Positions 7,134 to 64,000 of a stretch of 64,000 bases of DNA are shown here, piece after piece (position 1 is the stretch's first letter; every line of letters begins with the position of its first letter). The stretch comes from Gemmatimonadota bacterium (lineage in GTDB: Bacteria > JBHIER01 > G020348925). The stretch covers positions 2,619,688 to 2,683,687 of the forward strand of contig CP070758.1 in the NCBI GenBank assembly GCA_020348925.1, read 5' to 3'. The translations under genes were made by a program, and so were the position numbers. Below the pieces are notes generated by a model. It was not told the DNA's origin, did not search any database, and saw only the letters and a program-made list of their open reading frames with translations.

Positions 7134-7922
7134 GTGAGTCTTAAAATGTATTTGACGATTGCACTGGGGATCTGTGTAACGGTCTTCACAGGATCGCTCT
7201 GTGCCAGTACAGAGCAACCATCCCAAGATCTCAAAGCAGCTCAAATATTTACAGGTGATGCGCTTTCCTTTGAAGCAGGAACGCATATTGAGGTTCCGAT
7301 AGTCCTGACTACAACGAAGTCCTTGGCTGGTATTCAGATATCCTTAGAATACAATGGTGATATTATGACCCCGGGAGAACCTGTCCCAACCGAGCGGACG
7401 GCCGGTATGTCCGTCGCTCATAATATTACCGATGATAAGATTCTTATTTTACTGTATGATGTCACAGGGAAAACCATCAGCCCAGGAAACGATCCGGTTT
7501 TAACGCTCCCCTTTTCTATTGCTCAAAATGCGGAAGGTCGCAGTGAGTTGGTCTTTCGCGAAGTAATCCTCGCCGATGAAGGAGCAAACGCAGTACCTGC
7601 CGAAGTGAAGTCAACACCGATCACTTTTGAAAAAGCCCTTCCCACCGAATATGGTCTTGTTCAAAACTATCCCAATCCGTTCAATCCGGAGACGGTCATT
7701 GCCTATCAGCTCCCTGAAGAATCTCATGTAACTCTCACTGTTTATAACGTGTTGGGTCAAGAGATTCGCAGACTGACGGACGAACGACAGTCCGGGGGAT
7801 TTTATCAAATTGTCTGGGACGGGAAAAATGAATTCGGCAAAGATGTTTCGACGGGAGTATACTTTTACCGACTGCAGGCGGGTGGCTTCAAGAGTGTAAA
7901 AAAGATGATGATGCTCAAATAG
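7134..7922 (+). CDS. Secreted single-cohesin protein with FlgD/T9SS-A-like CTD
   Basis: Signal peptide; cohesin-like pattern EVPIVL..LAGIQISLEYN..PTERT..ISPG..VLTLPF; CTD QNYPNPFNP..WDG..GVYFY..KKMMMLK. Confidence 0.8.
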   Translation: MSLKMYLTIALGICVTVFTGSLCASTEQPSQDLKAAQIFTGDALSFEAGTHIEVPIVLTTTKSLAGIQISLEYNGDIMTPGEPVPTERTAGMSVAHNITDDKILILLYDVTGKTISPGNDPVLTLPFSIAQNAEGRSELVFREVILADEGANAVPAEVKSTPITFEKALPTEYGLVQNYPNPFNPETVIAYQLPEESHVTLTVYNVLGQEIRRLTDERQSGGFYQIVWDGKNEFGKDVSTGVYFYRLQAGGFKSVKKMMMLK

Positions 7923-8117
7923 GAATTGAGGGCATGTCCGATGTAAGGAAATCAATAAATAGGATTATGTTTAATCTTATCGACGTTCATTGAACAGGAG
8001 GGGGTGATCTTTCGAAAAAGAGTTTCCGTAGAAGGGTGTTCAAAAACCCATCATTTTCATTGTTGTACCGTCCGTTGTTTGAAAAGTTGAATCCTGTTTA
8101 GTTAAAGGAGGTTATAA

Positions 8118-9341
8118 ATGCGTGTGAAGACTTTTATTGTTTTAACGGTCTTTGTAGTGATGAGTGCAGTCTGCGGGTACGCGCAGGAAGCTATTCTGGC
8201 AATCGATGGTGAACCGTGTGCGGATGCTGGGGCGACTGGAATCGAGGTCAGCATCACTTTGGACAATAGCGCTATCGAAGACGATGTGGCCGGATTTCAG
8301 TTTGATCTCAATTTTGACAAGAGCGCTCTAACAAAAACCGATGTCGCTAAGACACCACGCTCAGAAGATCTTGCTATTTTTTCGACGAGCGACACCGATG
8401 ACGGCATTCGAGTTGTTGCGACGGGTATCGGGCAAACCATTTCAGATGTTACGGGAGCTATAGCTATTGTTACTTTCGATGTGGATGCCGGAGCTTCCGG
8501 TGATTACGACCTCACCTTTGTCAATCCGAAAGTGGCCAATCCTGCAGCCCAGGCCCTTCCACTCTCGGTTGTCGATGGCGTGTTTTCCGTGCCCTGTGGT
8601 GGGGGAGGAGGGGATGAGGCCATATTAGCGGTTGAGGACGCTTGCGGAGACCCGGGGCAAACAGGGGTTGAGGTGAACATCACCCTGGATAACAGCGCTC
8701 TGACTGAGGATGTCGCTGGCTTTCAATTTGATCTCTACTTCGACAAAACAGTGTTGGCCGTGAGCGATATTGTCAAGACAGACCGTACAGAAGATCTCAC
8801 TATTTTTAGTTTCAGCGAGACGGATGATGGATTGAGGTTGGTGGCGACGGGAATAGGTACCATCGTTTCAGGGACAACAGGTGCAATTGCCAAAGCTATC
8901 TTTGATGTGGATGCCGGGGCCGCTGTGGGCGAATATGATCTGACGTTCGTCAATGCGAAAGTTGCCGATCCAGGAGCGAATCCATTGCCAGTTGTTGTTG
9001 TCGATGGGACTTTTTTCGTGCCGTGTGATGCGGTTGAGCTCGTTCGTGAGGACATTGTGCCCACGAACTTTCACTTGACGCAGAACTATCCCAATCCCTT
9101 CAACCCAACAACAAGCTTCGATCTCTCCGTACCGACATCGGAGATGGTTAACGCGGTGATTTACAACGTCATGGGTCAGAAGGTGAGGACGTTGGTCAGC
9201 GAAGAACTTCCTGCTGGCTATTATACACTCACTTGGGATGGGTTGAGCGAACTGGGCATTCCTGTGACAAGCGGTGTTTATTTCTGCCAAGTGAAAGCCG
9301 GAACATTCGGCAGCTCTATCAAGATGCTGTTGTTGAAGTGA
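8118..9341 (+). CDS. Secreted two-cohesin mini-scaffoldin with CTD
   Basis: Signal peptide; two similar modules (EV.ITLDNSA...DVAGFQFDL.FDK...YDLTFVN.KVA.P...VVDG.F.VPC) joined by GGGGG; CTD. Confidence 0.85.
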   Translation: MRVKTFIVLTVFVVMSAVCGYAQEAILAIDGEPCADAGATGIEVSITLDNSAIEDDVAGFQFDLNFDKSALTKTDVAKTPRSEDLAIFSTSDTDDGIRVVATGIGQTISDVTGAIAIVTFDVDAGASGDYDLTFVNPKVANPAAQALPLSVVDGVFSVPCGGGGGDEAILAVEDACGDPGQTGVEVNITLDNSALTEDVAGFQFDLYFDKTVLAVSDIVKTDRTEDLTIFSFSETDDGLRLVATGIGTIVSGTTGAIAKAIFDVDAGAAVGEYDLTFVNAKVADPGANPLPVVVVDGTFFVPCDAVELVREDIVPTNFHLTQNYPNPFNPTTSFDLSVPTSEMVNAVIYNVMGQKVRTLVSEELPAGYYTLTWDGLSELGIPVTSGVYFCQVKAGTFGSSIKMLLLK

Positions 9342-9395
9342 TGTCCATTCGGGGACTTTCAAGTTGAGGCCAATCTCTTGGAATTCTAAGGAGAT

Positions 9396-9432
9396 AACCG
9401 TCGAGGCTTTCTCAATAGCCTCGACGGTTTTT
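9396..9432 (+). terminator. Rho-independent terminator or stabilising stem-loop
   Basis: 13-bp stem AACCGTCGAGGCT/AGCCTCGACGGTT followed by T-run. Confidence 0.8.
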
Positions 9433-9488
9433 GGCAAATAGAGATTTGCGTTGAAAGCAATGCTCTGTAAAAGTAAGGAATCATCGCG

Positions 9489-12400
9489 ATGAAAAGGTGG
9501 TATCTGTTCTTATTCTGTGTGGTTTTTGGGGTTGCAAGTATTCAAAACCTTTATGCCCAGGAGGCTACGTTGAGGATTCTGGATGCTTCCGGAAATCCGG
9601 GGAGTGAACGGAATCCTGTCTTTGTGAATCTCTCCAACGGTACCAGCGCCAGTGTCGTCCAATTTGCTCTAAATTTCGACGGAACCGTTTTAACCGTCGT
9701 TGATGTCCAACCCACTGAGCGCACCGAGCATATGGGAACCTTCTCGTGGGAAGTGCTTGATTCGAATGCTTTTGTCGTGTTCATTCAAGATCTTTCGGGT
9801 GAGGTGATCGATCCTGGGGTAGGACCAGTTGCCACTTGTTTTGTTGATGTCGCGGAAGGCGGGCTCGGGAAAGACCTGCTTCTTCAACTCTCAGGTGCAA
9901 GCCTCTTTGATCCATTCTCGAATCCTGTTTCGGTGAGAACTGTCGATGGTATTTTCAGGGTTACTGTTCCCGATATATCTCTCTCTGCCCAGACGCACAA
10001 TTACGGATTCGTCTTAATGGGACAATCCCAGGAATGGGAAGTCACTGTGTACAACGATGGAACGGGTTTGCTTACAATTTCCGATGTTCATTCCGACAAT
10101 TTTGAGTTCGTTGTAACATCTCCGCCCTTCCCTCAGGAAATAGCTCCCCTCGATAGTTTAGATATTCTTATTGTTTTTTCACCTTCCCTGGAGGGACCAC
10201 GATCGGCTTCAATATCATTATTTTCAAATGATCCCGATGAAGGTCTGCTATTTCTCTCCTTAACTGGCGGTGGAACTTCGGTCGATATCGATCTTTCTGA
10301 TTTGGAGCATGATTTTCAGGCTGTAAGAATAGGGACCACTTCCGACTGGTCCTTCACAATATTCAATTTGGGGATTGAACATATTACGGTATTCAATATC
10401 GTTTCAACCCACTCTGATTTTGAAATTACGCATCCCTCATTTCCTCAGAACGTATCACCGGCTGGGAGTTTAGAGGTGATCCTGCAATTCGCACCAACAT
10501 CGATGGGGAAATTAGAAGGTATGCTCACATTAACATGTGACGATCCAGATGAGGGAACAATTCTCTTAAATGTTGAGGGCATTGGACTTGCCCCAATTAT
10601 TCAACCGTCTGTTACGAATTATGATTTTGGGGATGTCGAGGTTGGTGCTTCGGAAGGGTGGTTACTTACGATTTCGAATGATGGAACAGCTGATCTGACG
10701 ATTGAAGCCCTCACTTCAAATAACACTGAATTTTCTGTTGCGTTTCCTGCATTCCCTCAAACTATTCCGCTGGGAGGAAATATTGAAGTTGTCGTTTCAT
10801 TTGCCCCATCAGACATAGGTGAGAGAACCGGAATCTTAACCATCACAAGTGATGATCCCTTCGATCCAACATTGAATTTAACCCTGAGTGGTGAAGGTGT
10901 TCCTTCAGCCATACTCACCATGGGAAACGGTTCGGGAGCTCCAGGGAGTGTGAGTATTCAAGTTCCTCTTTTGCTTACCAATCGGAGAGGGGTCGCTGCG
11001 TTGCGATGTATCCTCAGTTACGATGCATCAAAACTGGATGTTTCCAGCGTTTCGCCGACGAATCGAACCGCTCACATGGGAATTTTCAATTGGACCGAAC
11101 CTCTAGCCGGGAAGATTGTTCTTCTGATCGAAGATCTGACAGATCGCGTGGTTTCCCCGAGTACGGGTGCTGTCGCCAATTTCTTTTTTGATGTTGACAT
11201 TTCGGCTTTGCCTGCGGAAGAGCCGTTAATGCTTTCAAATGTGGCTTTGTATGATATCGATGAAGGAGACATTTTCACTGTCTCTGACGAACCCGGTTCT
11301 TTCACAATTATAGCTCCGGATATAGCGTTATCTGATACAGATTATGCGTTTGGGTCTGTGCTATTGGACGCTACAGCTTCATGGACATTGACCATATTCA
11401 ACGAAGGGACTATCGATCTTACTGTCACGGGAGTGACGACAACGAACACCGATTTCATGGTCGTTGCACCCTCTTTTCCCCAGACAGTCGAAGCTGGAGG
11501 AGATTTGGAGGTGGCCATCCGATTTACTCCCACTTCCCTTGGTCCTATTACGGGGGCCATTACGGTTGTAAGCAACGATAGTGATGAAGGTTTATTATCC
11601 GTAACTCTGTCGGGAACTGGGGTAACTCCTAATATTATACTGTCAGCGTACAGTCATCATTATAGTGAAGTCATATTGGGTACGTCCTCGTCATGGACCA
11701 TGAAAGTATTCAATACAGGAACAGCCGATCTTTCTATCACTCATGTTACTACTGATCAGGCTGACTTTCATGTAGCAAGTCCAATTTTTCCTCAAAGTGT
11801 GAAGCCGGCTGACAGTCTCACGGTCTCAGTAAACTTTACGCCTTCCGTTTTAGGAAATATATCGGGAACACTTACTGTATTCAATAATGATCCAGAGGAT
11901 GGAGAATTGTCTGTCGTTTTGATTGGCGTGGGCACTGCACCGGATATTAATGTTTCTGAAACAAGTCATGATTTTGGTGAAATCGTGGTGGGAGGGATGA
12001 GTAGTTGGATGTTACGAATATCAAATATCGGGTCAGCCGATTTAACCCTTCAAGACATCTCTTCAAATCGCGCTGACTTTAGTATTGTGGCTCTTTCCTT
12101 TCCCCAGATAGTACCACCGGGTGGATACCTTGATGTTATGATTTCATTTTCTCCCACTATTGAGGGTTTCATTTCAGGTGAGTTAGTCATCACATCCAAT
12201 GATGTTGATGAGGGTTCTTTCTTTATCCCAATGCAAGGGCGGGGAATTGCACCTGATATACACCTTTCGGCAACGAGTCAAAATTTTGGATCAGTGCTAC
12301 TGAATAAGAGTCGGTCATGGACGTTCTCCATTCATAATCTTGGAGTCGTGCTTTTAAGAGTAAACGAAGTGATTTCAGGCACCTCTGATTTTCATGTAAT

Positions 12401-14606
12401 CTCTCCCACGTTTCCACAAAATATTTTACCGGGTGATACTATTGAGGTAAATCTTATTTTTCAACCGGTTATGCTTGGTGAATTGATAGATACGATCCGG
12501 ATAGTGAGCAATGATCCAGATGAGAACATCTTAAACCTTCAGGTTCGAGGCACAGGTGTGGCTCCTCATATTGAACTCTCAGCAGAGGCCTATGATTTCG
12601 GTAATGTCGTGGTTGGGCGAACTGCAAGTTGGACATTGACAGTGAGGAACAGTGGGAGCTATGATCTTCATCTCAACCGCATTTATCTTGCGGATAGTAC
12701 GAACTTTCAAATACATGAAGTTTTACTCCCGATAACGATCACTCCTTCTGCAAGCTCAAATTTCACCCTCAATTTTAAACCCCTGAATCCAGGAATAAAG
12801 ACGGACGAAATCACAATTGAGAGTAATGATCTCGACAATCCAGTGGTTACATTTTCTCTTACAGGTCGGGGATCTGCTCCTCCTGCGTTGACTGTTCTCG
12901 ATAGGAGAGGCGCACTTGGGAGTTCAGATCGGTTGGTTCCACTTGAATTGTCCAATGAAATGGCGATTTCGAAGATTGTTTTTACTCTTCAGTATGATTC
13001 CGGGCGTTTGATCACGTCTGAAATTCAACCTACAGTGAGAACCGATCATATGGGTACATTTACGTGGCGTGAACAGAGTCCGGGTATTATTGGAGTAACC
13101 ATTGATGATGAAAACAAAATTGTAGAACCAGGATCAGGATGGGTTGTTGAATTCCTTTTTGACGTGAGAAGTGATGCCACATTGGGAGAAATTCCAATGA
13201 CTTTGACCAATGTCACACTTTATGATACTAACGGAGTAATTCTCCCCAAAAATCTCTTTCACGGTACTTTTGAAATAGTTGAAACGCTCGAGCAAGTGAC
13301 TATTGCTATTCCCCATAGGAGTAAACCTGCCGGTGACACCTTTCAAATTCCAGTAAAACTGTTGCAGGACATCACAGGATTAAATGTTTTGGCCATGGAA
13401 TTTGTCATTGTTTTTAATCCAGAACTTTTGACGGCTATTTCGGTTTCAGACGAGGGCACTTTAGCGGATGCTTGGCGTGGAACGCCAAATGCTGAATATT
13501 TAGCATTTACAGCCATAGAAGAGGATCGAATTATTGGAGTCATTGCGGCAAACTTTTCACTGTGGGGAGAAGGTACTTTTTTAAATATTACTTTCGAAGT
13601 TTCTGAGGATGCTCAGGCTGGTGAGAAGAGTCCACTTCATTTCTTAAATTCTAAGGTAAATGAAGGTGATCCTCCGGCAGAATTTATTGATGGGTGGTTT
13701 TCTGTCGAATCTGTACCGGACATTGATTTCTCGTTTCGAGAGCACGACTTTGGATCGGTGGAAATCGGTGAATCTCAAGATTGGCAATTGACCATCTACA
13801 ACGTTGGAACCGAGGATCTCGTTATTAGTGATATTGTTGTTACGATTTCCGACTTTACTCTGAGCGATATAACTGTGCCGCAAACGTTATCTCCAGATAG
13901 CCATCTTAATACCACGGTAGTTTTCAGTCCTCAAAGTCAAGGCCAAATAACAGGTGAGCTAAGAATTACAAGTAATGATACTGATGAACCCACAGCGTCT
14001 CTTTCGCTGCTGGGTGTGGGCACGCCTGGAGTCGATGTGCAATTAGCATACTTCTCTGGATACTGGACCGGGAGGGATGTTCTTCTGAAGTGGACATTCG
14101 CATCGTATGATGATGTGTTAGGTTTTCATGTTTATCGAAAAGGAGAAAATGAAATTGAATATTCTCGTCTAACGGCAGAACCGTTGATGTATGATGGGAA
14201 ATCTCTTTTCCGTGATATGGAAGTCCCGGGTTCGGGATTGTATTCCTATCGACTCGCAGCAGTTGACAATGAGGGTTTGGAAGAGTTATTGGGAACTGTT
14301 GCAGTGAAGGTGGGTGAAATAGGTAACTTATCATATTTTCTATCTCAAAATTTTCCTAACCCATTTAATCCTAAAACACGGATCGAATATACTCTCGAGA
14401 AAGCGGATCAGATTTCTCTTTCCATATACAATGTAATGGGTCAAAAAGTACGCAACTTGGTCTCTGCACGTCAAGGAGCGGGGCGATACACAGTTTTTTG
14501 GGATGGGACGAATGATAGTGGAGAAGCTGTTCCAAGCGGAGTTTATTTTTACATATTGGAAACTATGCATTTCCATGAAACGAGGTCGATGCTCCTCTTG
14601 CGTTAA
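9489..14606 (+). CDS. Large scaffoldin-like protein: 4 cohesin-like modules, 9 ASH/choice-of-anchor-D Ig repeats, FN3-like module, CTD
   Basis: Order Coh-ASHx3-Coh-ASHx5-Coh-Coh-ASH-FN3-CTD; ASH repeats P.I.LS...(H/Y)DFG.V..W...I.N.G...L...FPQ...F.P....SND.DE...L.G.G. Confidence 0.85.
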   Translation: MKRWYLFLFCVVFGVASIQNLYAQEATLRILDASGNPGSERNPVFVNLSNGTSASVVQFALNFDGTVLTVVDVQPTERTEHMGTFSWEVLDSNAFVVFIQDLSGEVIDPGVGPVATCFVDVAEGGLGKDLLLQLSGASLFDPFSNPVSVRTVDGIFRVTVPDISLSAQTHNYGFVLMGQSQEWEVTVYNDGTGLLTISDVHSDNFEFVVTSPPFPQEIAPLDSLDILIVFSPSLEGPRSASISLFSNDPDEGLLFLSLTGGGTSVDIDLSDLEHDFQAVRIGTTSDWSFTIFNLGIEHITVFNIVSTHSDFEITHPSFPQNVSPAGSLEVILQFAPTSMGKLEGMLTLTCDDPDEGTILLNVEGIGLAPIIQPSVTNYDFGDVEVGASEGWLLTISNDGTADLTIEALTSNNTEFSVAFPAFPQTIPLGGNIEVVVSFAPSDIGERTGILTITSDDPFDPTLNLTLSGEGVPSAILTMGNGSGAPGSVSIQVPLLLTNRRGVAALRCILSYDASKLDVSSVSPTNRTAHMGIFNWTEPLAGKIVLLIEDLTDRVVSPSTGAVANFFFDVDISALPAEEPLMLSNVALYDIDEGDIFTVSDEPGSFTIIAPDIALSDTDYAFGSVLLDATASWTLTIFNEGTIDLTVTGVTTTNTDFMVVAPSFPQTVEAGGDLEVAIRFTPTSLGPITGAITVVSNDSDEGLLSVTLSGTGVTPNIILSAYSHHYSEVILGTSSSWTMKVFNTGTADLSITHVTTDQADFHVASPIFPQSVKPADSLTVSVNFTPSVLGNISGTLTVFNNDPEDGELSVVLIGVGTAPDINVSETSHDFGEIVVGGMSSWMLRISNIGSADLTLQDISSNRADFSIVALSFPQIVPPGGYLDVMISFSPTIEGFISGELVITSNDVDEGSFFIPMQGRGIAPDIHLSATSQNFGSVLLNKSRSWTFSIHNLGVVLLRVNEVISGTSDFHVISPTFPQNILPGDTIEVNLIFQPVMLGELIDTIRIVSNDPDENILNLQVRGTGVAPHIELSAEAYDFGNVVVGRTASWTLTVRNSGSYDLHLNRIYLADSTNFQIHEVLLPITITPSASSNFTLNFKPLNPGIKTDEITIESNDLDNPVVTFSLTGRGSAPPALTVLDRRGALGSSDRLVPLELSNEMAISKIVFTLQYDSGRLITSEIQPTVRTDHMGTFTWREQSPGIIGVTIDDENKIVEPGSGWVVEFLFDVRSDATLGEIPMTLTNVTLYDTNGVILPKNLFHGTFEIVETLEQVTIAIPHRSKPAGDTFQIPVKLLQDITGLNVLAMEFVIVFNPELLTAISVSDEGTLADAWRGTPNAEYLAFTAIEEDRIIGVIAANFSLWGEGTFLNITFEVSEDAQAGEKSPLHFLNSKVNEGDPPAEFIDGWFSVESVPDIDFSFREHDFGSVEIGESQDWQLTIYNVGTEDLVISDIVVTISDFTLSDITVPQTLSPDSHLNTTVVFSPQSQGQITGELRITSNDTDEPTASLSLLGVGTPGVDVQLAYFSGYWTGRDVLLKWTFASYDDVLGFHVYRKGENEIEYSRLTAEPLMYDGKSLFRDMEVPGSGLYSYRLAAVDNEGLEELLGTVAVKVGEIGNLSYFLSQNFPNPFNPKTRIEYTLEKADQISLSIYNVMGQKVRNLVSARQGAGRYTVFWDGTNDSGEAVPSGVYFYILETMHFHETRSMLLLR

Positions 14607-14639
14607 TTTACTTTGAATAGACTAAAAAGGAGGTATCTT

Positions 14640-16079
14640 TTGCGGGACTGGAAGATCAAAATGTTCATGACGCGGCGTTTCTGGAGCATTTGCATGCTCA
14701 TCATGTGCTCAATGTGTTGTGGATGGGGGTGGCAGGATTCGAATGCTGATACAAGCGAATCAGTCGTTGATACTGGAAAAGTCCGTATCCCTAATGTTTG
14801 GGCTATGCCGGGGGATACAATTGAGTTGCCTATTATTATTTTGTATGATGTTACCGGATTAGATATTTTTTCGATCACGGGAGATTTAACATTTGATCCA
14901 TCTCTTATCTCCTTAACAGGAGACACCGTAATTACAGAAGGCACGCCGAGTGACAATGAAGTTTGGGCTTGGTTTTTCATATCAGCCATGGTTGATACCA
15001 ACACATTCCGCATGGTTTGGGCTGCCGTAGAATCTCTGGAGGGAAGTGGACCTCTTGTTTATGTGCAATTTCGCGTGTCACCAATGGCACAACTTGGTGA
15101 GGTCAGTCCTCTTTGGTTAGAATCTTGGAATTTTAATGAAGGAGATCCGGCAATTGAGGTTTTTGATGGGGTCTTTTCTGTTGGGCAACCTCCACGCATC
15201 GAGCTCTCAGAGACGATTCATGAATATGGAACCGTCGATATTGGTCAGAGTGCGGAGTGGATACTGCGCATTACGAATGTAGGAGATAATTTTCTTGATA
15301 TATATACTATGGAAACCGATAGTGTACAATTCGAAGTTCTTGAACCTTTTTTTCCTCAATCGATCAATGCTGGGAATACGATTGAAACAACCGTTACTTT
15401 TACACCAGACTCTAATGATTCTATTGAGGGTAATTTACGGCTAAGTTGTAATGATTTAGATAATCTAATCCTAAATATCCCCTTGGGGGGAATAGGGCGT
15501 GGGACACATGTGCAACTTTTATCTTTTACTGCTCAGTTTCATGATGATAAGATTTTCATAAACTGGATAACCTCTGAGGAAAGTTGTCATTTAGGATTTA
15601 TTCTCTACCGTAGCTGTTTTCCTGATAAAGATTTCAAACCAATCAATACTGAATTGATTGCTGGGGGTCCTTCGTATGTTTTTCTGGATGATTCTCCAAA
15701 GGGGGAAGGTATTCATTACTATAAACTTAGTTCTGTGGATGTGAACGGATATGAGGAAACCGTTGGTTTTACTTCAGTAAAAGTGTTTTCTATGACACCT
15801 ACAACTCATTCACTTCTTCAGAACTACCCAAATCCATTTAATCCTATTACTTACATTACGTTTGAAGCACCAAAAGAGGAGTATGTGACCTTAAGTGTTT
15901 ACAATTGTTTAGGGCAAGAGATTCGGAAGCTTTTTGAAGGTCATGCGGATTTGAATCATAATACTGTATCCTGGGATGGTTTGGATAGTAAAGGAAATAT
16001 TCTTCCGAGTGGAATCTACTTTTGTAGGCTTCAGTCTTCCATGGGCATTAGATCAATGCGAATGATGCTTTTACGATAG
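14640..16079 (+). CDS. Secreted cohesin + ASH + FN3-like + CTD protein
   Basis: TTG after AGGAGG (ORF call begins 14613); architecture mirrors the last four modules of the large scaffoldin (TGL..F.P.L..EGT..NEGDP..DG.FSV). Confidence 0.8.
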   Translation: MRDWKIKMFMTRRFWSICMLIMCSMCCGWGWQDSNADTSESVVDTGKVRIPNVWAMPGDTIELPIIILYDVTGLDIFSITGDLTFDPSLISLTGDTVITEGTPSDNEVWAWFFISAMVDTNTFRMVWAAVESLEGSGPLVYVQFRVSPMAQLGEVSPLWLESWNFNEGDPAIEVFDGVFSVGQPPRIELSETIHEYGTVDIGQSAEWILRITNVGDNFLDIYTMETDSVQFEVLEPFFPQSINAGNTIETTVTFTPDSNDSIEGNLRLSCNDLDNLILNIPLGGIGRGTHVQLLSFTAQFHDDKIFINWITSEESCHLGFILYRSCFPDKDFKPINTELIAGGPSYVFLDDSPKGEGIHYYKLSSVDVNGYEETVGFTSVKVFSMTPTTHSLLQNYPNPFNPITYITFEAPKEEYVTLSVYNCLGQEIRKLFEGHADLNHNTVSWDGLDSKGNILPSGIYFCRLQSSMGIRSMRMMLLR

Positions 16080-16104
16080 GACAATTGTCCAAAACTATGA
16101 TAAA

Positions 16105-16782
16105 ATGTTGATGAATAGTGTTGAACAAGAAAGGAAGAGTAAAGAGATAACAGCATTGATTTGTCAGCTTCAAGGTGTGCTCTCTGCTCATGTCTCCTTT
16201 AATGGACAGGAAGAACTGGAAGAGATTCATGTTTTAGCGAATCGTGGTCGATCACCGAAGCAAATTGTTCGCGATATCGAATCGATTTTAGTTACACAAC
16301 GAGGTCTGCGGGTTGATCACAAAAAAATTAGTGTGGCCCAGATTGAAGGAGAGTCGACTGCTTTAAAAGATGGATCTCGAATTAAATTTGTAAGTGTAGG
16401 CGTTTCTGTCCCTGGCCTTGAAAGTAAAGTAGAGGTTGAACTTACCAAGGACAATGTTCCTTCCCTCGGAGTTGCCGAGGGACCAGGATCGGAATTGAAT
16501 CAATTGCGCTTAGTAGTTGAGGCCACCTTAAAAGCGATCAGGAACTTTTTAGATTCAGATCATACGTTTGTTTTCGAAAGTATTAAGTCTATAGGCGAAG
16601 AGAGAAATATTATCATTGTGACAATAACGGCACTTACACCGAGAGATGAACGAAAACTTATTGGTTGTGCCTTTTCTGAAGGGGATCGTAATAAAACAGC
16701 TGTTTTTGCTACATTAGACGCGTTGAACCGGTATTTGGAGAGATGGTTAAAAGCTTCGTGCAATTCGGGGCAAAATATATAA
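16105..16782 (+). CDS. Conserved hypothetical protein
   Basis: EIHVLA..RSPKQIVRDIES..VDHKKISVAQ motif; C-terminal ATLDALNR resembling a LeuA-regulatory-like fold. Confidence 0.7.
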   Translation: MLMNSVEQERKSKEITALICQLQGVLSAHVSFNGQEELEEIHVLANRGRSPKQIVRDIESILVTQRGLRVDHKKISVAQIEGESTALKDGSRIKFVSVGVSVPGLESKVEVELTKDNVPSLGVAEGPGSELNQLRLVVEATLKAIRNFLDSDHTFVFESIKSIGEERNIIIVTITALTPRDERKLIGCAFSEGDRNKTAVFATLDALNRYLERWLKASCNSGQNI

Positions 16783-17026
16783 GGCCGACATCAAAAATGT
16801 GTTTACCAATGGTTATCACTAAAGTTTATTGAGCGGAGCGGTTATCAACCGAGCGAAGCGGTTTACAAGCCCGTCTTTTAAATGAATTTCGGGTAGTGTA
16901 GATTGCGAAAGGGGGTTGATACCGTGNNNNNNNNNNNNNNNNNNNNNNNNNNNNNNNNNNNNNNNNNNNNNNNNNNNNNNNNNNNNNNNNNNNNNNNNNN
17001 NNNNNNNNNNNNNNNNNNNNNNNNNN

Positions 17027-50103: not shown

Positions 50104-50117
50104 TTGACGAAAGTCAA
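50104..50117. promoter_or_regulatory. Crp/Fnr (HcpR-type) binding box
   Basis: TTGAC-GAAA-GTCAA in context TTTTTGAC-N4-GTCAAAGA, same flanks as the 56271 box. Confidence 0.75.
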
Positions 50118-51571: not shown

Positions 51572-51598
51572 TTCCCTCGCAGGTGAGAGGAGGTTAAA

Positions 51599-53945: not shown

Positions 53946-54069
53946 GTATGGCGAACATTGGCTTTCTGCATTTAGAAAATGTGCACCTATGGGGTGTGAA
54001 TAATGAAAATATGTACTATACGTACTCCGTTACCAAATCATTATGGATTCTGAACATTAAACAATTACT

Positions 54070-54636
54070 TTGATGAATCAGTCTTTTCGAATGTGGAGGA
54101 ACTCACTCGTGACCGGTAGAAAAACAGTACTATTTCTCCTCTCTCTCCTCTTATTGGGTTGTGTATCTGCTTCATACGGTGATACTGAAAAAGCGCCCGA
54201 TTTTAATCTGCTCACTATTGAGGGGGAAAAGGTGAAGTTGAAGGATTTACTGGGAAAAGGTCCCATCTTGATCGACTTTTGGGCCACCTGGTGCAAGCCG
54301 TGTATAAAGTATTTACCCAAGTTACAAGATTTGTACAAGGAATATGGGGAGAAAGGTTTCATGGTTTTGGCCATCAACGAGGACGGACCCCGGAACCTTT
54401 CCAAGGTGAAACCTTTTGTCAATTCCTTGGGACTTCAGTTTCCGATTCTTTTGGATAAGAACTCGCAGGTTCTGCGTCGCTTCCGGGGTTTCGGCATACC
54501 TATATCCGTACTCGTCAATCCGGAGGGTGAGATTGTTCGCGTACATCGGGGTTACAGGCCTGGTGATGAAAAAATGTGGGTCGAAGAGATTGAGAAGCAT
54601 TTGATCGTAAAGGAGCCCAAGGCCCAAATCCAGTAA
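54070..54636 (+). CDS. TlpA-family thiol-disulfide oxidoreductase
   Basis: APDF, IDFWATWCKPC, GIP; N-terminal signal; start uncertain. Confidence 0.92.
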   Translation: MMNQSFRMWRNSLVTGRKTVLFLLSLLLLGCVSASYGDTEKAPDFNLLTIEGEKVKLKDLLGKGPILIDFWATWCKPCIKYLPKLQDLYKEYGEKGFMVLAINEDGPRNLSKVKPFVNSLGLQFPILLDKNSQVLRRFRGFGIPISVLVNPEGEIVRVHRGYRPGDEKMWVEEIEKHLIVKEPKAQIQ

Positions 54637-54646
54637 GGTATTCTTT

Positions 54647-56206
54647 TTGAGAAGTACACTCCGTTCAATTAAGTTTATCGCATTAACCTGGATATTTCTG
54701 TTATTGAGTTGGCGTGGAGCGCTCGGTCAATTGGCTGTGTCCAACTTAGCGGAGTATCAATTAGGAAACCTGCCCCACACAGATCCTCCAACCCTCACTA
54801 CCCTTTATGATCAACTCAATGTCGATTATTATTACCAAAATATCCTTCTCGGTTTGAGGTTGGAATCTTTTCGGGCTTCGGAATTGGATCGCAAATTCTT
54901 CGAGGTCACCCAGAAATATATGGAGGCACAAACGGATCATCTTTCGTTAAGAATAGGCAACTTTTATGCCATACTGGGCAGGGGTATTGTGCTGAGGGCT
55001 TTTGAGTTGCCCGGAGTGGTTCTTGAAGATCAGGTCTACAGAAGGAGGTACAGCTTCTCTCGGGATTTAGAGGGAGTGTTGTTGAAGGGAATGTGGCGAA
55101 AAAGTGAATTCACGCTCCTGCGGGGTGAGCCATTGGACAGCAGTCTTCCACCGGGTGTGGAGAACCTGGAAAGAAGACAGAGACTGGTTGAGGGAGGGGA
55201 GCTGCGACTGAGGCCATGGAATTGGCTTACTCTCGGTGGCACCTATGTGAGACTGAATAAAAACGAAGGCCATCAGGAGGTGGCTTCCGCCTTCTGGGGC
55301 GGTTCCCTTCGATCGCTGGTGGAAATCTTGAAGGTGAAAGACATGGACCTTGACTTCTACGGTGAATATGCCCAGGTTCAGGGGGAGCTGAGCTCATTCT
55401 TGAGTCTTGAAGCAGACCAGCCTCATGCTTTGTATCTCTCTTTCAACTTTCTGTTCAGGAACCTCGGTCTGAGCATAGAATACAAAGACTATCAATCCTT
55501 CGACTTGGGCATCAACGACCCACCCTATTTGGTCAAAGAACATAATTTGACGCTCTTGAATCGTTCAACTCACATTCTTTTGCCTCAAAATGAGCGAGGC
55601 TACCAAATCGAAGGCAATTACAAGATAAGCAGTTATGCAAATGCGGTCTTCAACGTGAGCCGCGCCGTCAATGATCTCCTCGGTAGAGAAACGAAATTTG
55701 AGGAAAGATACGGGGAGATTTTGATGAATTTCAAACCGAATGTGTCTACTACGCTCTTTTATGATCATGGGAAAGACGAATTTGATTTCATTAAAGATAG
55801 AGATACATGGGGAAGCACCGTGGAATGGCAACCGGATTATGCCTACGGTTTGAAATTGGATTTTCAATGTCAGAGAGTGACACGCTCTTTCACTTCGGAT
55901 AAAGAAGAGGTTTTTCGGAATCATTTTCTCTCACTCTCGTTCTCAAAATCGCCGCAGGTCATATTCTCTCTTATCGGGGAAAAATCCACCGATCCTTTTG
56001 AGACTGACGATAAGGAGACTGTTGATATTCTTGAGGATGATCCGGAATATTGGCTTGGTGTAAACGTCAATTACCAGATCAGCGTGGAGCATGAGCTCAA
56101 TCTCTTCTACGGTGACCGCAGGGGCGGTCCCGCATGCAATGCAGGTACATGTTATGAGGTCTTGCCCTTTGAGGGATTAGAGATGAGGTTGGTAAGTCGT
56201 TTTTGA
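54647..56206 (+). CDS. DUF6029-like outer-membrane beta-barrel protein
   Basis: Signal peptide; GNFY..GRG..LR, EYKDY, NDPP..KEH, RRGGPACNAGTCY..PFEG; terminal Phe. Confidence 0.75.
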   Translation: MRSTLRSIKFIALTWIFLLLSWRGALGQLAVSNLAEYQLGNLPHTDPPTLTTLYDQLNVDYYYQNILLGLRLESFRASELDRKFFEVTQKYMEAQTDHLSLRIGNFYAILGRGIVLRAFELPGVVLEDQVYRRRYSFSRDLEGVLLKGMWRKSEFTLLRGEPLDSSLPPGVENLERRQRLVEGGELRLRPWNWLTLGGTYVRLNKNEGHQEVASAFWGGSLRSLVEILKVKDMDLDFYGEYAQVQGELSSFLSLEADQPHALYLSFNFLFRNLGLSIEYKDYQSFDLGINDPPYLVKEHNLTLLNRSTHILLPQNERGYQIEGNYKISSYANAVFNVSRAVNDLLGRETKFEERYGEILMNFKPNVSTTLFYDHGKDEFDFIKDRDTWGSTVEWQPDYAYGLKLDFQCQRVTRSFTSDKEEVFRNHFLSLSFSKSPQVIFSLIGEKSTDPFETDDKETVDILEDDPEYWLGVNVNYQISVEHELNLFYGDRRGGPACNAGTCYEVLPFEGLEMRLVSRF

Positions 56207-56270
56207 GCGATCCTGGGAAAAATAGAGGGAAAGTGAAGGAACGGTTTATACTATTTTAAAAATTTCTTTT

Positions 56271-56284
56271 TTGACTCGGGTCAA
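56271..56284. promoter_or_regulatory. Crp/Fnr (HcpR-type) binding box
   Basis: TTGAC-TCGG-GTCAA; -10-like TACCTT at 56307. Confidence 0.78.
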
Positions 56285-56418
56285 AGAATTCTATGTTTTT
56301 TTGAGATACCTTTCAGCATAAGCAGAATGTGATAGCACGCTCGCTGAACCTCTACAAATTTTGAGGATCAGCAAGACTGAGGAGAAAATCGAAGATATTC
56401 ATTTTAAGAAGGTTGGAA

Positions 56419-57144
56419 ATGGTAAAGAGAAAGATTGTCGAAATTGACGGGGAGAAAAGTACAGGTTGCGGGTTGTGCATACCGGCCTGTCCTGAGGGAG
56501 CTATTCAGCTTGTCGATGGTAAAGCCCGGTTGATAAGCGACATTTATTGCGATGGATTGGGTGCATGCCTTGGTGAGTGTCCTGAGGATGCGATTACTAT
56601 CATAGAACAGGAAGCTGAAGCGTTCGATGAAGAGGCGATGAAGCTCCATTTGCTGGAAATGGAGGAGAAACAGATCCCTCCAGCTCCTGAATTCAGTGGC
56701 TGTCCGGGGTCAAGAGTTATGGAGTGGAAAAGCGAGCGTGAGGCTCCTTGGTCGGGAAAGGAAGTGCCTCCGGTGCAATCGGAATTGCGACAGTGGCCTG
56801 TCCAATTGATGTTGGTGAATCCTGAGGCACAGTACTTTGAAAATGCGGATCTCGCCATAGTCGCAGACTGCGTCCCCTTTGCCTACGCCAGTTTCCACCA
56901 GGATTTCCTAAAGGATACTTCCATCGTTGTCGGCTGTCCGAAGCTCGATGACCTCGGTTTCTATCAACAGAAACTGGCACAAATTTTTAGTATGAACAAT
57001 ATCAAGAGCGTCACCACCGTTATAATGGAAGTCCCCTGCTGTGCCGGATTGAGCCATGCGGTGCAACAGGCCATCGCCGAATCGGGGAAGGATATTCCCT
57101 ATGAAAAGGTTGTTATCGGGATTAAGGGAAATCGGCACTCCTGA
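56419..57144 (+). CDS. 4Fe-4S ferredoxin-like protein of the type usually linked to hcp (FrdX-like)
   Basis: GCGLC..ACPE, YCDGLGACLGECP, GCPGS, SELRQWPVQL, ADC, GCPKLDD, MEVPCC. Confidence 0.88.
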   Translation: MVKRKIVEIDGEKSTGCGLCIPACPEGAIQLVDGKARLISDIYCDGLGACLGECPEDAITIIEQEAEAFDEEAMKLHLLEMEEKQIPPAPEFSGCPGSRVMEWKSEREAPWSGKEVPPVQSELRQWPVQLMLVNPEAQYFENADLAIVADCVPFAYASFHQDFLKDTSIVVGCPKLDDLGFYQQKLAQIFSMNNIKSVTTVIMEVPCCAGLSHAVQQAIAESGKDIPYEKVVIGIKGNRHS

Positions 57145-57428
57145 AACTTTTCGTCTTGCCCAGAACTATTCCAATCCCTTTAATCCAACAACAGATATCA
57201 GATATCAGATATCAGATTGCAGATAGCAGATCTTCAGTTCATATCACCTTGAAAATTTTCAATCTTCTTGGGCAGGAGGTGCGGACGCTGGTCAATGAGA
57301 TACGGGAACCTGGTTACTATTCCGTGACGTGAGATGGTCGCGGTTATGCACTTGCCAGCAGTATCTATTTCTACCGCCTGAATGCTGAGGATTACTCTGT
57401 TACGAAACGTATGATCCTGATGAAATGA
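57140..57428 (+). pseudogene. Orphan decayed CTD remnant
   Basis: PETFRLAQNYSNPFNP, frameshift by an extra 7-mer, Trp-to-TGA at 57330, ends KRMILMK*. Confidence 0.8.
57192..57233 (+). repeat. 7-bp tandem repeat CAGAT(AT) x6 (three perfect, three degenerate)
   Basis: cagatat cagatat cagatat cagattg cagatag cagatct. Confidence 0.85.
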
Positions 57429-57574
57429 ACAGGGGCGGATATGGAATGATGATGGTCGATACAAATAAGTGAAAGATCATGTTGAAAGTTCCCAGACAAT
57501 CGAAACATGTGCATACGCGGGCACAGAAAACTTTATTTAACCTGCTTATTTCATGAACTGGCATTGCGGCTGGA

Positions 57575-57657
57575 GCTTGTCCCGGGATGTCGAAATCTCC
57601 TCGACCATTGAAACAGATTCTCTATTCGGGAGATTCCGGGAGAAATCGGGAATGACA
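57575..57657 (+). repeat. REP-like palindromic dispersed element, copy 2
   Basis: GCTTGTCCCGGGATGTCGAAATCTCCTCG...GAGATTCCGG...GGAATGACA. Confidence 0.6.
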
Positions 57658-57983
57658 GAGTCTCTCATCATTAAAAATGCCATGAAACGTGGTTCGAAAA
57701 CAGTGTTCATTTTAAATCTTTATATACATTGTAGTTGTATATGAATTGATCACACTCTCTTCATCCTCCGTTTTTTCGTTCAATCCGTTGAATTTTGAAC
57801 AATGAGACATTACGTTTAACAACATTTCCTGTAACCATATAGAGAAACTACTCGTAGAGTACTGCCAGATTTTGAACAAAATTNNNNNNNNNNNNNNNNN
57901 NNNNNNNNNNNNNNNNNNNNNNNNNNNNNNNNNNNNNNNNNNNNNNNNNNNNNNNNNNNNNNNNNNNNNNNNNNNNNNNNNNN

Positions 57984-61878: not shown

Positions 61879-61978
61879 NNNNNNNNNNNNNNNNNNNNNN
61901 NNNNNNNNNNNNNNNNNNNNNNNNNNNNNNNNNNNNNNNNNNNNNNNNNNNNNNNNNNNNNNNNNNNNNNNNNNNNNN

Positions 61979-62450
61979 AAATATCCTGACCAGCGAGGCT
62001 TTAACTCTTTGGCTACCTCTACGGTGGACTTGCAGTTGGCACCCAAAGCATTGATGATCTGGAAAATGTGATATGCTTTCATTCCAAGTTGTCGACCAAT
62101 TGCTCGATAACTGGCCTCACTGTCATAATAGAGTTCACAGGCTTTGATCTGGAGAGAAAAATTGACGGGTTTGATTTTTGTGGGAGTAAATGATTTGTTA
62201 CAGTCCTTACAGAGCCAACGTCGGTACGTTCGGATCCTCTTCCCGGATGAAGTCCTTACCTTTCTCTTGCGCCGATCGTGTAGCTTCGCTCGTTTGCCAC
62301 TGCAAAACGCACACGGTTTTCTTCGCATAATAGACCTCCTTAGCGCGTTCAACGCACTAAAACTAGAAGATCTATTACGCAATCCCTCTCACAACAAAAT
62401 GTTACATGTATCTATCCATCAAAAAAACACCCAATTCTGGATACGCTCTC
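61979..62450 (-). mobile_element. Left part of an insertion sequence; transposase N-terminus 62328 to gap (Zn-finger + HTH; IS256- or IS1-like)
   Basis: CAFC..RWLCKDC..SFT, SYRAIGRQL HTH; RBS AGGAGG; possible terminal repeat GAGAGCGTATCCAGAATTGGGTGT near 62450. Confidence 0.65.
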
Positions 62451-62465
62451 CAAAATTTATAGAAA

Positions 62466-64000
62466 TCAAGGCACACACTCTCCTGTGCCCAGGAGTACGT
62501 TCACGATACCTAAAGCATCTATAATGTTTACCTGAGCGTCTCCATTGCAATCTGCCCATGGGAGAGCGTCTCCTGGTAATGGATCGATTCCCAAAATATG
62601 GTTGACCACTGCCAGTACATCCAGGATGTTGATCTCACCGTCGAAATTTACATCCCCATTCATGCCGGTATATTCTTCAAAGGTCAGGCAATATTCTTTT
62701 GTTTCGATAGCTCCCAGATCGTCTTGCACTTGAATGGTAAAACAGAATGTACCAAATTCCTGCGGTTTTCCTGAAATAGAACCCATGACCGTATCATGAG
62801 TCAATCCCAATGGCAGCTCACCCTCAACAAGGGTCCACGAATAAGGGAGGACTCCCCCTGATGCTATCAGGTATTCTTCGTAGTAAAATTTTTCAGAACC
62901 ATCCGGTAGTTGTTCAGTCGTGATACCTAGAGGACCGCACCCGCTGATCTTGAAAGTTCTTTCACACACGCCACAGTTTTCAATGTTTTCGGGATCACAG
63001 ATTCTGACAAGGCAATCGATGGAAGGTGTATCGGGAATGGTCCAGGGATATGAACCATCATCAGGAGTACTCTCGGTGACCGGTTCCCAGTCGGTTCCAC
63101 CATTGGTCGAATACTCGATGATCACATTTCCGCTGGTAAAGCATGAGCTCCATGTGATCTCATGGTCTTCTACCGCACACCAGCTCTCCCCACCGTTCGG
63201 TGAAGCAATATCGACATAAGCATTCCCCAGAACGGTCAGACCTGAATCTCTATCGGCAACATATATATAACATCCATATAAAGCTACCCCCCAGGCTTGG
63301 CCCGGTGTATCGTAGGTCTCGATCAACGTTGGCGAAGCCGGATCAGAGATGTCGATGATCTGAATGCCGATCTGATCGCGAGCCATACAGGCAAAATCAC
63401 CGACCACGGCTACAGTAAAGTTATTTTGCCAATCCTCATAGTACCCGCCAAGAGTCGGCGAAGTCGGATCGCTGATGTCGATGATATAAAGCCCTGAGTA
63501 ATCGGCCACATAGGCGTAGTTTCCAACCACCTCTACATCGTTGGCCGCGTGGGTCTCGAAGCTTCCGGCCGGGGTTGGCGAAGCTGGATCGATAATATCG
63601 ATGATCTGTAGGCCCCCTTCCCAGTCCGCTACGTATGCGTAATTTCCAACCACGTCCAAACCCTGTGCCGCGTCCTGGGTATACATACCGCCCATCAGGG
63701 TTGGGGAAGTCGGGTTTGAAATATCGATGATCATCAGTCCAGCATTCTGAGCTCCCACATATGCATACTCACCGACCACATCCACACCATTGGCATTGTC
63801 CGGTGTAACGTAGCTTCCAGTCAACGTTGGCGTGGTCGGGTCCGAGATGTCGATGATCTTGAAACCATTATTCCCGGCAGCGCAATATGCATAGGATCCA
63901 ACAATGGTAACATCATAGATGTAATCCCCAGTATAGGACCCGGTCAGCGATGGAGAGCCGGGATCGGAGATATCGATGACAGAAAAACTATATGCGCCTA
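62466..64000 (-). CDS. LVIVD-repeat protein + Ig-like module + putative Ig (He_PIG-like) + dockerin, no CTD; 5' end outside window
   Basis: Repeated V.VVG.YAYVAD..GL.IIDISDP.SP; ASGGVLPYSW....G.LP.GL; GDVNFDGEINILD/ADCNGDAQVNIID. Confidence 0.9.
   Translation of the reverse strand, partial: GAYSFSVIDISDPGSPSLTGSYTGDYIYDVTIVGSYAYCAAGNNGFKIIDISDPTTPTLTGSYVTPDNANGVDVVGEYAYVGAQNAGLMIIDISNPTSPTLMGGMYTQDAAQGLDVVGNYAYVADWEGGLQIIDIIDPASPTPAGSFETHAANDVEVVGNYAYVADYSGLYIIDISDPTSPTLGGYYEDWQNNFTVAVVGDFACMARDQIGIQIIDISDPASPTLIETYDTPGQAWGVALYGCYIYVADRDSGLTVLGNAYVDIASPNGGESWCAVEDHEITWSSCFTSGNVIIEYSTNGGTDWEPVTESTPDDGSYPWTIPDTPSIDCLVRICDPENIENCGVCERTFKISGCGPLGITTEQLPDGSEKFYYEEYLIASGGVLPYSWTLVEGELPLGLTHDTVMGSISGKPQEFGTFCFTIQVQDDLGAIETKEYCLTFEEYTGMNGDVNFDGEINILDVLAVVNHILGIDPLPGDALPWADCNGDAQVNIIDALGIVNVLLGTGECVP

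Follow-up and report, generated by a model that had tools for sequence, protein, structure and literature searches.

We analysed a window of 64 kb (positions 2,619,688 to 2,683,687 of CP070758.1) from the genome of a bacterium deposited as Gemmatimonadota (GTDB JBHIER01). The window encodes cohesin and dockerin modules, many of them on proteins that end in a type IX secretion system (T9SS) C-terminal sorting domain (CTD). A first-pass annotation, made from the sequence alone, had reported four adjacent secreted genes with about eight cohesin-like modules and had described their C-terminal ends as FlgD/T9SS-like. The four genes are as follows.

7134-7922 (+): small anchoring scaffoldin with a signal peptide, one cohesin (7272-7628) and a T9SS type A CTD (7647-7919); Pfam Cohesin 32.7 bits, FlgD_ig and Por_Secre_tail matches, TIGR04183 45.1 bits.
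8118-9341 (+): scaffoldin with two cohesins (8181-8597 and 8607-9026) and a CTD (9069-9338); Pfam Cohesin 56.7 bits in two stretches.
9489-14606 (+): large scaffoldin of 1705 amino acids with four cohesins (9555-9962, 10905-11309, 12882-13277 and 13290-13706) and a CTD (14334-14603); Pfam Cohesin 99.9 bits in three stretches, TIGR04183 match.
14613-16079 (+): scaffoldin with one divergent cohesin (14781-15182), one immunoglobulin (Ig) domain and a CTD (15807-16076); Pfam Cohesin 21.2 bits (below the cut-off), genome-trained profile E 4.9e-21, TIGR04183 33 bits.

Both parts of that description agree with our scans. The Pfam family PF00963 scores above its cut-off of 24.1 bits in three of the four adjacent genes and just below it in the fourth (14613-16079), and a profile started from one window cohesin and iterated on the six-frame open reading frames (ORFs) of the genome places eight modules, distributed 1+2+4+1 over the four genes. 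TIGR04183, with a cut-off of 23 bits, matches the C-terminus of all four proteins at 29.7 to 45.1 bits, which identifies these ends as T9SS type A sorting domains; FlgD_ig and Por_Secre_tail also match there. Between its cohesins the large scaffoldin carries about nine 'choice-of-anchor D'/HYDIN-type Ig domains (HYDIN_VesB Ig in nine stretches; NF012200 456 bits, nine stretches). The four scaffoldins together have eight cohesins and zero dockerins, and no carbohydrate-binding module (CBM) was seen on them in Pfam and NCBIfam scans.

Eight dockerin genes had also been proposed. PF00404 (cut-off 22.9 bits) scores above its cut-off, at 28.4 to 41.2 bits, in seven window ORFs (41887-44841, 45568-48384, 48363-49112, 50648-51571, 51599-52960, 53454-53945 and 62466-63998 on the minus strand). 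The eighth gene, at 41149, keeps only the second half of its dockerin because a run of Ns removes the first half. The genes are as follows.

41149-41595 (+): 3' part of a dockerin-linker-CTD gene, truncated by the N run 41049-41148, with a second dockerin half (41149-41211) and a CTD (41335-41592); Por_Secre_tail 35.3 bits.
41962-44841 (+): cargo region of about 780 amino acids, dockerin (44251-44457), 41-amino-acid linker and CTD (44581-44838); Dockerin_1 32.2 bits, Por_Secre_tail 39.8 bits, weak InhA-like_MAM match of 29.5 bits.
45568-48255 (+): paralogue of 41962-44841 that has a dockerin (47881-48087) and is truncated at its 3' end by the N run 48256-48355; Dockerin_1 36.8 bits.
48356-49112 (+): 3' fragment with an FG-GAP repeat, dockerin (48516-48713), linker and CTD (48843-49109); Dockerin_1 38.1 bits, FlgD_ig 46.1 bits, FG-GAP 22.6 bits.
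50279-51571 (+): beta-propeller-like cargo, dockerin (50969-51160), linker and CTD (51287-51568), with an in-frame TGA at 50627-50629; in the read-through translation Dockerin_1 35.7 bits, DUF6923 27.8 bits, Vgb_lyase 29.0 bits (below the cut-off).
51599-52960 (+): glucose/sorbosone dehydrogenase-type (PQQ family) propeller with a C-terminal dockerin (52745-52954) and no CTD, the ORF ending right after the dockerin; GSDH 171.3 bits, Dockerin_1 28.4 bits, TIGR03606 83.7 bits (below the cut-off).
53235-53945 (+): AhpC/TSA-type redoxin with a C-terminal dockerin (53760-53936) and no CTD, with a TGA at 53436-53438; Dockerin_1 35.1 bits with TGA read as U.
62466-64000 (-): LVIVD-repeat propeller with a He_PIG Ig domain and a C-terminal dockerin (62469-62663), no CTD, 5' end beyond the window (full ORF 609 amino acids); LVIVD 247.8 bits in seven stretches, Dockerin_1 41.2 bits.

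Across the four cohesin genes and the three CTD-bearing dockerin genes that were scanned, TIGR04183 scores 29.7 to 48.9 bits. Of the proposed gene starts, 41962 is the start of a record in the protein Atlas, and 50279 and 53235 hold if the in-frame TGA codons are read through. The cargo listed by the first-pass annotation stands for the PQQ-family propeller, the FG-GAP and LVIVD proteins and the redoxin. Its 'QC-like' propeller does not, as the protein concerned has only weak DUF6923 and Vgb_lyase matches. The gene at 54070-54636 was rejected as the dockerin-bearing redoxin: it has a thioredoxin fold and no dockerin, and the redoxin with a dockerin is 53235-53945. The N-terminal region of about 780 amino acids in 41962-44841 defines a paralogous family (41962-44841, 45568-48255, L094:1015-3444, L112:1-2724 and L116:1-2790) in which it always lies upstream of a dockerin; look-alikes of the N-terminal domain of 41962-44841 in the protein Atlas are hypothetical protein clusters alone.

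The TGA of the redoxin gene occupies the first cysteine position of a CxxC motif (UxxC, in the context ..GYG-U-GFC..). Both halves of the ORF lie in one frame and, with TGA read as U, the translation matches the AhpC-TSA profile at positions 1-123 of 124, spanning the TGA. The genome encodes a tRNA-SeC (tca) at C1:405376-405474, and 53235-53945 is probably a secreted selenoprotein. The other TGA (50627-50629) has the context HCPGG-U-QARP, in a gene whose true stop is also TGA, and could be selenocysteine, the mark of a pseudogene or a sequencing error. The hairpins after the two codons are no better than those of shuffled sequences (z = -0.76 at 53436-53438 and -1.52 at the other) and give no evidence for a SECIS element.

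The window is not one continuous stretch of DNA and comprises eight contig pieces split by seven runs of exactly 100 N (16927-17026, 19801-19900, 22873-22972, 41049-41148, 48256-48355, 57884-57983 and 61879-61978). The whole record of 5.04 Mb has 205 such runs and thus 206 contig pieces, as in a draft or metagenome-assembled genome (MAG), and is estimated to be 96.3% complete and 0.52% contaminated. Since the pieces are placed end to end through N spacers, neighbourhood across an N run implies no physical linkage. The four cohesin genes lie at the end of one piece of 80,355 bp (window 1-16926) and the window dockerin genes lie on three other pieces. Two more T9SS CTDs (19966-20223 and 57153-57329) are found at contig edges in gene fragments truncated by N runs and illustrate how frequently the assembly breaks at such repeated modules.

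A record made of 206 joined pieces could be a binning artefact that unites cohesin contigs of one organism with dockerin contigs of another. The piece 41149-48255, which contains two paralogous 3-kb genes, fits such an artefact in having a tetranucleotide correlation of only 0.689, the ninth-lowest of 205. However, the cohesin contig itself carries 13 dockerin ORFs, the array ending 13.5 kb upstream of the four scaffoldin genes, and its tetranucleotide correlation with the genome mean is 0.983. Both module types are present on 51 of the 206 pieces and in one frame in 65 ORFs. Loci L112 and L116 contain dockerins that share 86% identity with the aligned one from the low-scoring piece, and L116 also encodes a cohesin-dockerin protein. 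The low contamination estimate and a sister genome with the same expansion (see below) also speak against an artefact. We conclude that the cohesins and dockerins belong to one organism, as the first-pass annotation had supposed, and that a mixture of organisms is close to refuted. The cohesin cluster was found in sequencing runs of sediment metagenomes that stem from four studies, with no RNA run among those listed. One of these runs may have supplied the window's DNA, and in X2, another sample from the same study, the dockerin pieces 41149-57883 have full cover (30 of 30 bins, on contigs of at most 2,342 bp with 0-4 differences). In three runs of another study their cover is patchy, with 0 differences. 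Both results indicate presence only.

Module identity was assessed with an alignment of 38 cohesins (A1; the eight window modules and 30 from elsewhere in the genome) and an alignment of 60 dockerins (A2). A profile of A1 searched against the PDB gave 39 matches, almost all to cohesins, with solved cohesins scoring from E 6e-13. The AlphaFold2 (AF2) model of the second cohesin of 8118-9341 (8601-9032) has a pLDDT of 96.3 and a pTM of 0.89, and all PDB matches listed for it by Foldseek are cohesins (TMq 0.66-0.84), the best at 0.81-0.84 with a root-mean-square deviation of 2.1 Å. A Pfam-negative cohesin that precedes the CTD in a dockerin-cohesin tandem was modelled with a pLDDT of 90.0, and its listed Foldseek matches are likewise all cohesins (TMt about 0.72). 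By profile and predicted fold, which agrees with the nine-stranded beta-sandwich of solved cohesins, the modules are cohesins of a type I-like kind, and the alternative that they are CBMs or generic Ig domains is contradicted by both the sequence profile and the Foldseek matches.

The A2 profile matched solved type I dockerins in the PDB, for example 2ccl_B and 1ohz_B. The mean column identity of A2 is 55%, with the consensus RGDVNxDGxIDVLDVLAVVNHILG...RADCNGDGxVDILDALGIVNVILGxGECxP, in which D20 and D54 are invariant and N26, D43, N45, D47 and N60 are nearly so. The dockerin in the AF2 tandem model has three helices. Two pattern-recognisable calcium loops, mostly 34 residues apart, are present in 198 of the 286 full-length dockerins in the genome. 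This build agrees with that of type I dockerins, which have two tandem segments of about 22 residues, each made of a calcium-binding loop (D-x-N/D-x-D...D) and then a helix. Positions 10/11 are VL, IL, II or LL in 155 of these 198 first repeats and 157 of the second, so the V/I-L-type residues first noticed in both halves of the window dockerins hold genome-wide; positions 17/18 are V/I-N in 160 first and 156 second repeats. A cysteine at position 2 of loop 2 co-varies with a cysteine at most 12 residues after the last helix (both present in 141 dockerins, neither in 49, one in 8), and from this co-variation the pair probably forms a disulfide. As members of this family, the dockerins would be expected to fold and to bind cohesins in a calcium-dependent manner.

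We searched the six-frame translation of the genome for the same modules. PF00963 gave 96 cohesin matches, 73 of them above the cut-off, and PF00404 gave at least 153 dockerin matches with 150 of 527 first-look candidates scored, all 150 listed being above the cut-off. Profiles trained on the genome gave the following counts.

Dockerin: 316 domains in 306 ORFs.
Cohesin: 174 domains in 102 ORFs.
T9SS CTD: 261 ORFs.
Dockerin and CTD: 113 ORFs.
Cohesin and CTD: 76 ORFs.
Dockerin and cohesin: 65 ORFs.
All three: 47 ORFs.

Nearly half of the cohesin ORFs (46 of 102) have 2-6 modules, and 241 of the 306 dockerin ORFs have no cohesin of their own. Taken together and counted from stop to stop, the ORFs with a dockerin or a cohesin cover about 825 kb (about 16%) of the genome. 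A sample of 181 of the 343 dockerin or cohesin ORFs was scanned with Pfam. Local dockerin calls in the sample were confirmed by Pfam in 43 of 61 cases at E ≤ 1e-6 and in 47 of 54 and 41 of 52 (88 of 106) at E ≤ 1e-4, and the local profiles missed zero Pfam calls.

The host phylum has two genomes in a collection of 199,900 species, the second being from the same family as the window's genome. This sister genome (3.7 Mb, 87% complete) equals the window's genome in its cohesin matches at E ≤ 1e-5 (56 in each) and also has 271 dockerin candidates and 10 full-length dockerin-cohesin tandems, compared with 32 tandems in the window's genome. In 29 other genomes, related at domain level alone, eight have 1-4 cohesin matches. 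Five MAGs of the FCB group have dockerin matches at E ≤ 1e-5 as follows: KSB1 6, Zixibacteria 7, Cloacimonadota 0, Calditrichaceae 0 and Ignavibacteriaceae 20; at E ≤ 1e-14, which is too strict a threshold, they have none. Among the genomes searched, the expansion is peculiar to this lineage.

The modules recur in three cassettes: cohesin(s)-CTD, as in the window scaffoldins; dockerin-linker-CTD; and dockerin-cohesin-CTD or cohesin-dockerin-cohesin-CTD. The linker between dockerin and CTD has 40-42 residues in at least 80% of 66 ORFs (window 44458-44580, 48714-48842 and 51161-51286 and 63 others). It is helical and conserved, with the motif TPEAME..L.SL..YLS.EDY.RFMALV, and the helix 'TPEAME...RFMALV' is found in five window genes. 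Dockerins and cohesins abut at 87 junctions, with a median gap of 6 amino acids from dockerin to cohesin (n = 40) and 2 amino acids from cohesin to dockerin (n = 47). The AF2 model of a dockerin-cohesin tandem has a pTM of 0.87 despite a linker pLDDT of 61, which hints at a fixed mutual arrangement, the pTM being a hint alone. These tight junctions and the tandem model would also suit an arrangement in cis, in which a dockerin clasps its own adjacent cohesin for stabilisation or auto-capping, free dockerins serve mainly as calcium-dependent stabilising tails, and no large multi-protein complex is formed. The dockerin-like modules of genomes with few or no cohesins, such as the five FCB-group MAGs, are consistent with such a role too. 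However, the 241 dockerin ORFs without a cohesin and the window scaffoldins without a dockerin mean that there are free partners on both sides, and we consider modules that act mostly within single proteins unlikely compared with a network between proteins.

To characterise the cargo of this putative network, domain families were tallied by hand over the 181 sampled ORFs. Peptidase domains are present in 36 of them, including eight M28, six M1/M6, four M14, four S8, six S41, three C1 and five C25, plus M23. Propeller-type repeats (FG-GAP/ASPIC, LVIVD, SBBP, PD40, Kelch, PQQ_2, Reg_prop and BNR) occur in 39 of the 181, and Laminin_G_3 and PKD domains on many. Other families are hydrolases of the serine beta-lactamase and metallo-beta-lactamase folds, esterases, DJ-1/PfpI, a transglutaminase core, two Porphyromonas-type peptidyl-arginine deiminases, an endo/exonuclease-phosphatase domain, Omp28, DUF3160, DUF362 and Fib_succ_major. 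The window cargo is in keeping with this census, with two MAM-like proteins, an FG-GAP fragment, a DUF6923-like propeller, a GSDH/PQQ-family propeller, a redoxin and an LVIVD propeller, and the leading enzyme cargo across the sample is peptidases rather than redox enzymes. Single-linkage clustering of the cargo regions placed 198 of the 343 ORFs in one cluster through shared Ig and lectin domains.

Two groups of cargo genes lie elsewhere in the genome. The array of 13 dockerin ORFs on the cohesin contig (C1:2556818-2613246) includes, among those scanned, seven tandem M28 paralogues, an M1, an M14, a C25 gingipain-like peptidase and a Porphyromonas-type arginine deiminase. At L095:1-14905, L103:5939-12618 and L105:17418-19136, a dockerin forms the C-terminal end of gingipain-like C25 peptidases (three of them in tandem) and of two PAD_porph deiminases.

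Glycoside hydrolases (GHs) are found in four of the 181 sampled ORFs (a GH13 amylase, GH31, GH99 and GHL10-like) and a heparinase-II C-domain in one. Together with the common Laminin_G_3 domain, which belongs to the concanavalin-like lectin/glucanase superfamily, and with several sampled ORFs that match no cargo family, these dockerin-borne domains would be expected if the system were a true polysaccharide-degrading cellulosome or an analogue of one (an amylosome or a chitin-degrading complex) whose enzymes are too divergent for Pfam. The first-pass annotation had recognised no cellulase or cellulose-binding domain in the window, and this extends to the genome: with 96% of it represented, the genome-wide search, which covered GH9, GH5 and CBM3 and did not include GH48, gave zero GH9, zero CBM3 and a single weak GH5 match (32.6 bits) in an ORF without a dockerin. 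Given also that peptidases outnumber GHs by 36 to four and that the window scaffoldins show no CBM, we regard a polysaccharide-degrading system as very unlikely. The cargo mix with its very few GHs is best read as that of a protein-degrading, adhesive surface coat and not of a cellulosome.

In support of export through T9SS, the genome encodes SprA (708 bits) and the PorU sortase (738 bits), both above their cut-offs, with a PorV-like gene (190 bits against a cut-off of 250) directly downstream of porU. The genome has one secretin gene. A search for relatives with the two-cohesin protein of the window kept 80 matches that were driven by the CTD (residues ~230-407), and among these the CTD is common to MAGs of Ignavibacteria, KSB1, Zixibacteria, Calditrichia, Cloacimonadota and Marinimicrobia.

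We think it quite likely that the window is a small part of a genome-wide cohesin-dockerin network that is exported by T9SS, assembled at the cell surface and mainly proteolytic and adhesive, and that resembles a cellulosome in how it works. As the domains and machinery genes suggest, cohesin proteins with a Sec signal and a type A CTD would be exported via SprA, and PorU would cut off the CTD and anchor them at the cell surface. Proteins with the conserved symmetric dockerin would then dock on these cohesins, in a calcium-dependent manner if they behave like other members of their family. The docked cargo would comprise peptidases (M28, M1, M14, S8, S41, C1, C25 and M6), propeller and lectin-like modules (FG-GAP/ASPIC, LVIVD, SBBP and Laminin_G_3), hydrolases and redox proteins. 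Dual dockerin-cohesin proteins, often with a dockerin-cohesin-CTD tail, may extend the complex into chains or networks beyond a hierarchy of scaffold plus enzymes.

Several points weigh against this interpretation. Pfam confirms only 18 of 42 local cohesin ORFs (2 of 12 at E ≤ 1e-6; 7 of 11 and 9 of 19, or 16 of 30, at E ≤ 1e-4), so the count of 174 modules rests largely on a profile trained on the same genome, which the PDB matches and the two predicted folds back for the aligned subset alone; the Pfam cohesin model is weak on these divergent modules. The ORFs are stop-to-stop frames rather than gene calls, and the Pfam-scanned sample was taken from the densest clusters and is non-random. In about 39 of the 181 sampled ORFs the cargo is a propeller without an assigned activity, and others match no cargo family, so that 'proteolytic' covers the largest enzyme class rather than the whole system. 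Cohesins are more diverse than dockerins (mean column identity 29% versus 55%). As for the symmetric binding with one shared specificity that had been proposed for the window dockerins, a dominant symmetric dockerin type fits the conservation, but with such diverse cohesins a single specificity is not assured. GldM/PorM was not found in the genome in a search run without a positive control. Finally, 165 of the 254 dockerin ORFs that are complete at both ends have no T9SS CTD, and the proposed network leaves their route to the surface unexplained.

A crude signal-peptide rule flags 132 of these 165 CTD-less ORFs. Because most of them thus appear to have a Sec-type signal, while 76 of the 102 cohesin ORFs have a CTD, one tentative possibility is that the CTD-less dockerin enzymes hitch-hike: in the periplasm they would associate with a cohesin protein that bears a CTD and then leave with it through T9SS as a folded complex. 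At the surface, dockerin-cohesin-CTD tails might then link head to tail into an enzyme-studded lattice. We offer this as speculation with a small chance of being correct.

The remaining genes of the window lie outside the cohesin-dockerin set. Three ORFs have no Pfam family, namely 16105-16782 (+) of 225 amino acids, which is directly downstream of the scaffoldin cluster, 20580-22872 (+) of 764 amino acids and 39247-39981 (-) of 244 amino acids; the first two also have no NCBIfam family. One piece carries metabolic genes at 25619-29854, 30430-33550, 33560-35740 and 36435-38456, all on the minus strand, whose products include a CoA enzyme activase, two aldehyde:ferredoxin oxidoreductases, a DmsC-like membrane anchor, ThiF and MobB-FeS. 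The activase gene is as follows.

25619-29854 (-): BcrAD/BadFG double ATPase with DUF2229, a 'CoA enzyme activase' of 1411 amino acids.

These genes suggest an anaerobic metabolism dependent on tungsten or molybdenum cofactors, and the two aldehyde:ferredoxin oxidoreductases together with the BcrAD/CoA-enzyme activase suggest that the host is an anaerobic fermenter.

In the usual account, cohesin-dockerin assembly was invented by Gram-positive bacteria to break down plant cell walls. Here it takes up about a sixth of the genome of a diderm sediment bacterium from a barely sampled phylum and appears to be coupled to type IX secretion, which suggests that the degradation of protein by 'cellulosome analogues' may be a major strategy in anoxic sediments. 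The system is also a natural library for synthetic scaffolds, with one very conserved and probably disulfide-bearing dockerin type and about 170 diverse cohesins, and it raises the question for T9SS of how so many dockerin proteins without a sorting domain reach the surface.

Like the cellulosomes of clostridia and ruminococci, the system has multi-cohesin scaffoldins, many dockerin proteins, a type I-like cohesin fold and dual-module, adaptor-like proteins, and its dockerins share the duplicated calcium loop and helix of dual-binding type I dockerins, here with near-identical halves. Unlike cellulosomes, it belongs to a diderm host with T9SS sorting domains, whereas cellulosome producers anchor their complexes by SLH domains or sortase. 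CBM3 and GH9, as noted, were not found in the genome, and a dockerin, in most cases right next to the cohesin, is present in 65 of the 102 cohesin ORFs. To our knowledge, the co-varying cysteine pair is absent from clostridial dockerins. Pseudobacteroides (P.) cellulosolvens is described, in a report that calls its system the largest and most intricate known, as having 78 cohesins on 31 scaffoldins and 212 dockerin ORFs in a genome of 6.9 Mb, with about half of the dockerins on CAZymes, and the same report gives 180-223 dockerins for R. flavefaciens (PMC5590126). The approximately 306 dockerin ORFs and 174 cohesins found here rival or exceed the largest published cellulosome system, with a cargo made up mainly of peptidases and propellers. 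A 2024 survey of 305,693 genomes is reported to have found cellulosomes in 33 species, primarily of four clostridial genera (PMC11557425); as it required dockerin-fused GHs, a system of this kind would fall outside its definition as described there.

Cohesins and dockerins on proteins unrelated to cellulose have been described in archaea, including Archaeoglobus fulgidus and ANME, some of these proteins being scaffoldin-like with one dockerin and up to five cohesins (PMC9012536). The A. fulgidus cohesin 2xdh ranks sixth among the structural matches of our 8601-9032 model. The archaeal sets differ in having hosts with an S-layer envelope, ANME cargo that is often ABC-transporter binding proteins, no T9SS and far smaller numbers. 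The 'mucinolysomes' are presented as another non-cellulosomal cohesin-dockerin set (PMC12997984).

A close precedent is Ca. Stygibacter (Cloacimonadota), for which a T9SS-anchored, cellulosome-like complex for polypeptide and polysaccharide degradation was proposed in 2021 (PMC8542988). A cellulosome-like complex that is partly proteolytic and anchored through T9SS has thus already been put forward in print. As described there, Stygibacter possesses a scaffoldin-like protein bearing tandem cohesins and a T9SS CTD, and dockerins on S8/S53, C25, GH18 and GH57 proteins, which is similar to what we find; it differs in having a handful of dockerin proteins and one scaffoldin of 3,755 amino acids with CBM2/CBM3 (PMC8542988). 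The genome studied here has hundreds of dockerins, around 100 cohesin proteins, no CBM3 found, and the recurrent dockerin-cohesin-CTD and dockerin-41-amino-acid-linker-CTD cassettes. The single Cloacimonadota MAG that we searched, which is not stated to be Stygibacter, is the one with 0 dockerin matches at E ≤ 1e-5. Among the open-access papers that our searches listed, we found no published system of this size, no dockerin-cohesin-CTD cassette and no cysteine-paired dockerin.

The cargo also resembles that of Porphyromonas-type T9SS, with C25 gingipain-like peptidases that have a propeptide domain, peptidyl-arginine deiminases (PPAD) and a porU gene next to a porV-like one. The Porphyromonas counterparts of the C25 and deiminase proteins bear a T9SS CTD, whereas the sampled ones here end in a dockerin at the place where a CTD would be expected. 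Their attachment to the surface would therefore be indirect, through cohesins. The defining cargo is not that of a cellulosome, yet the system most likely works like one.

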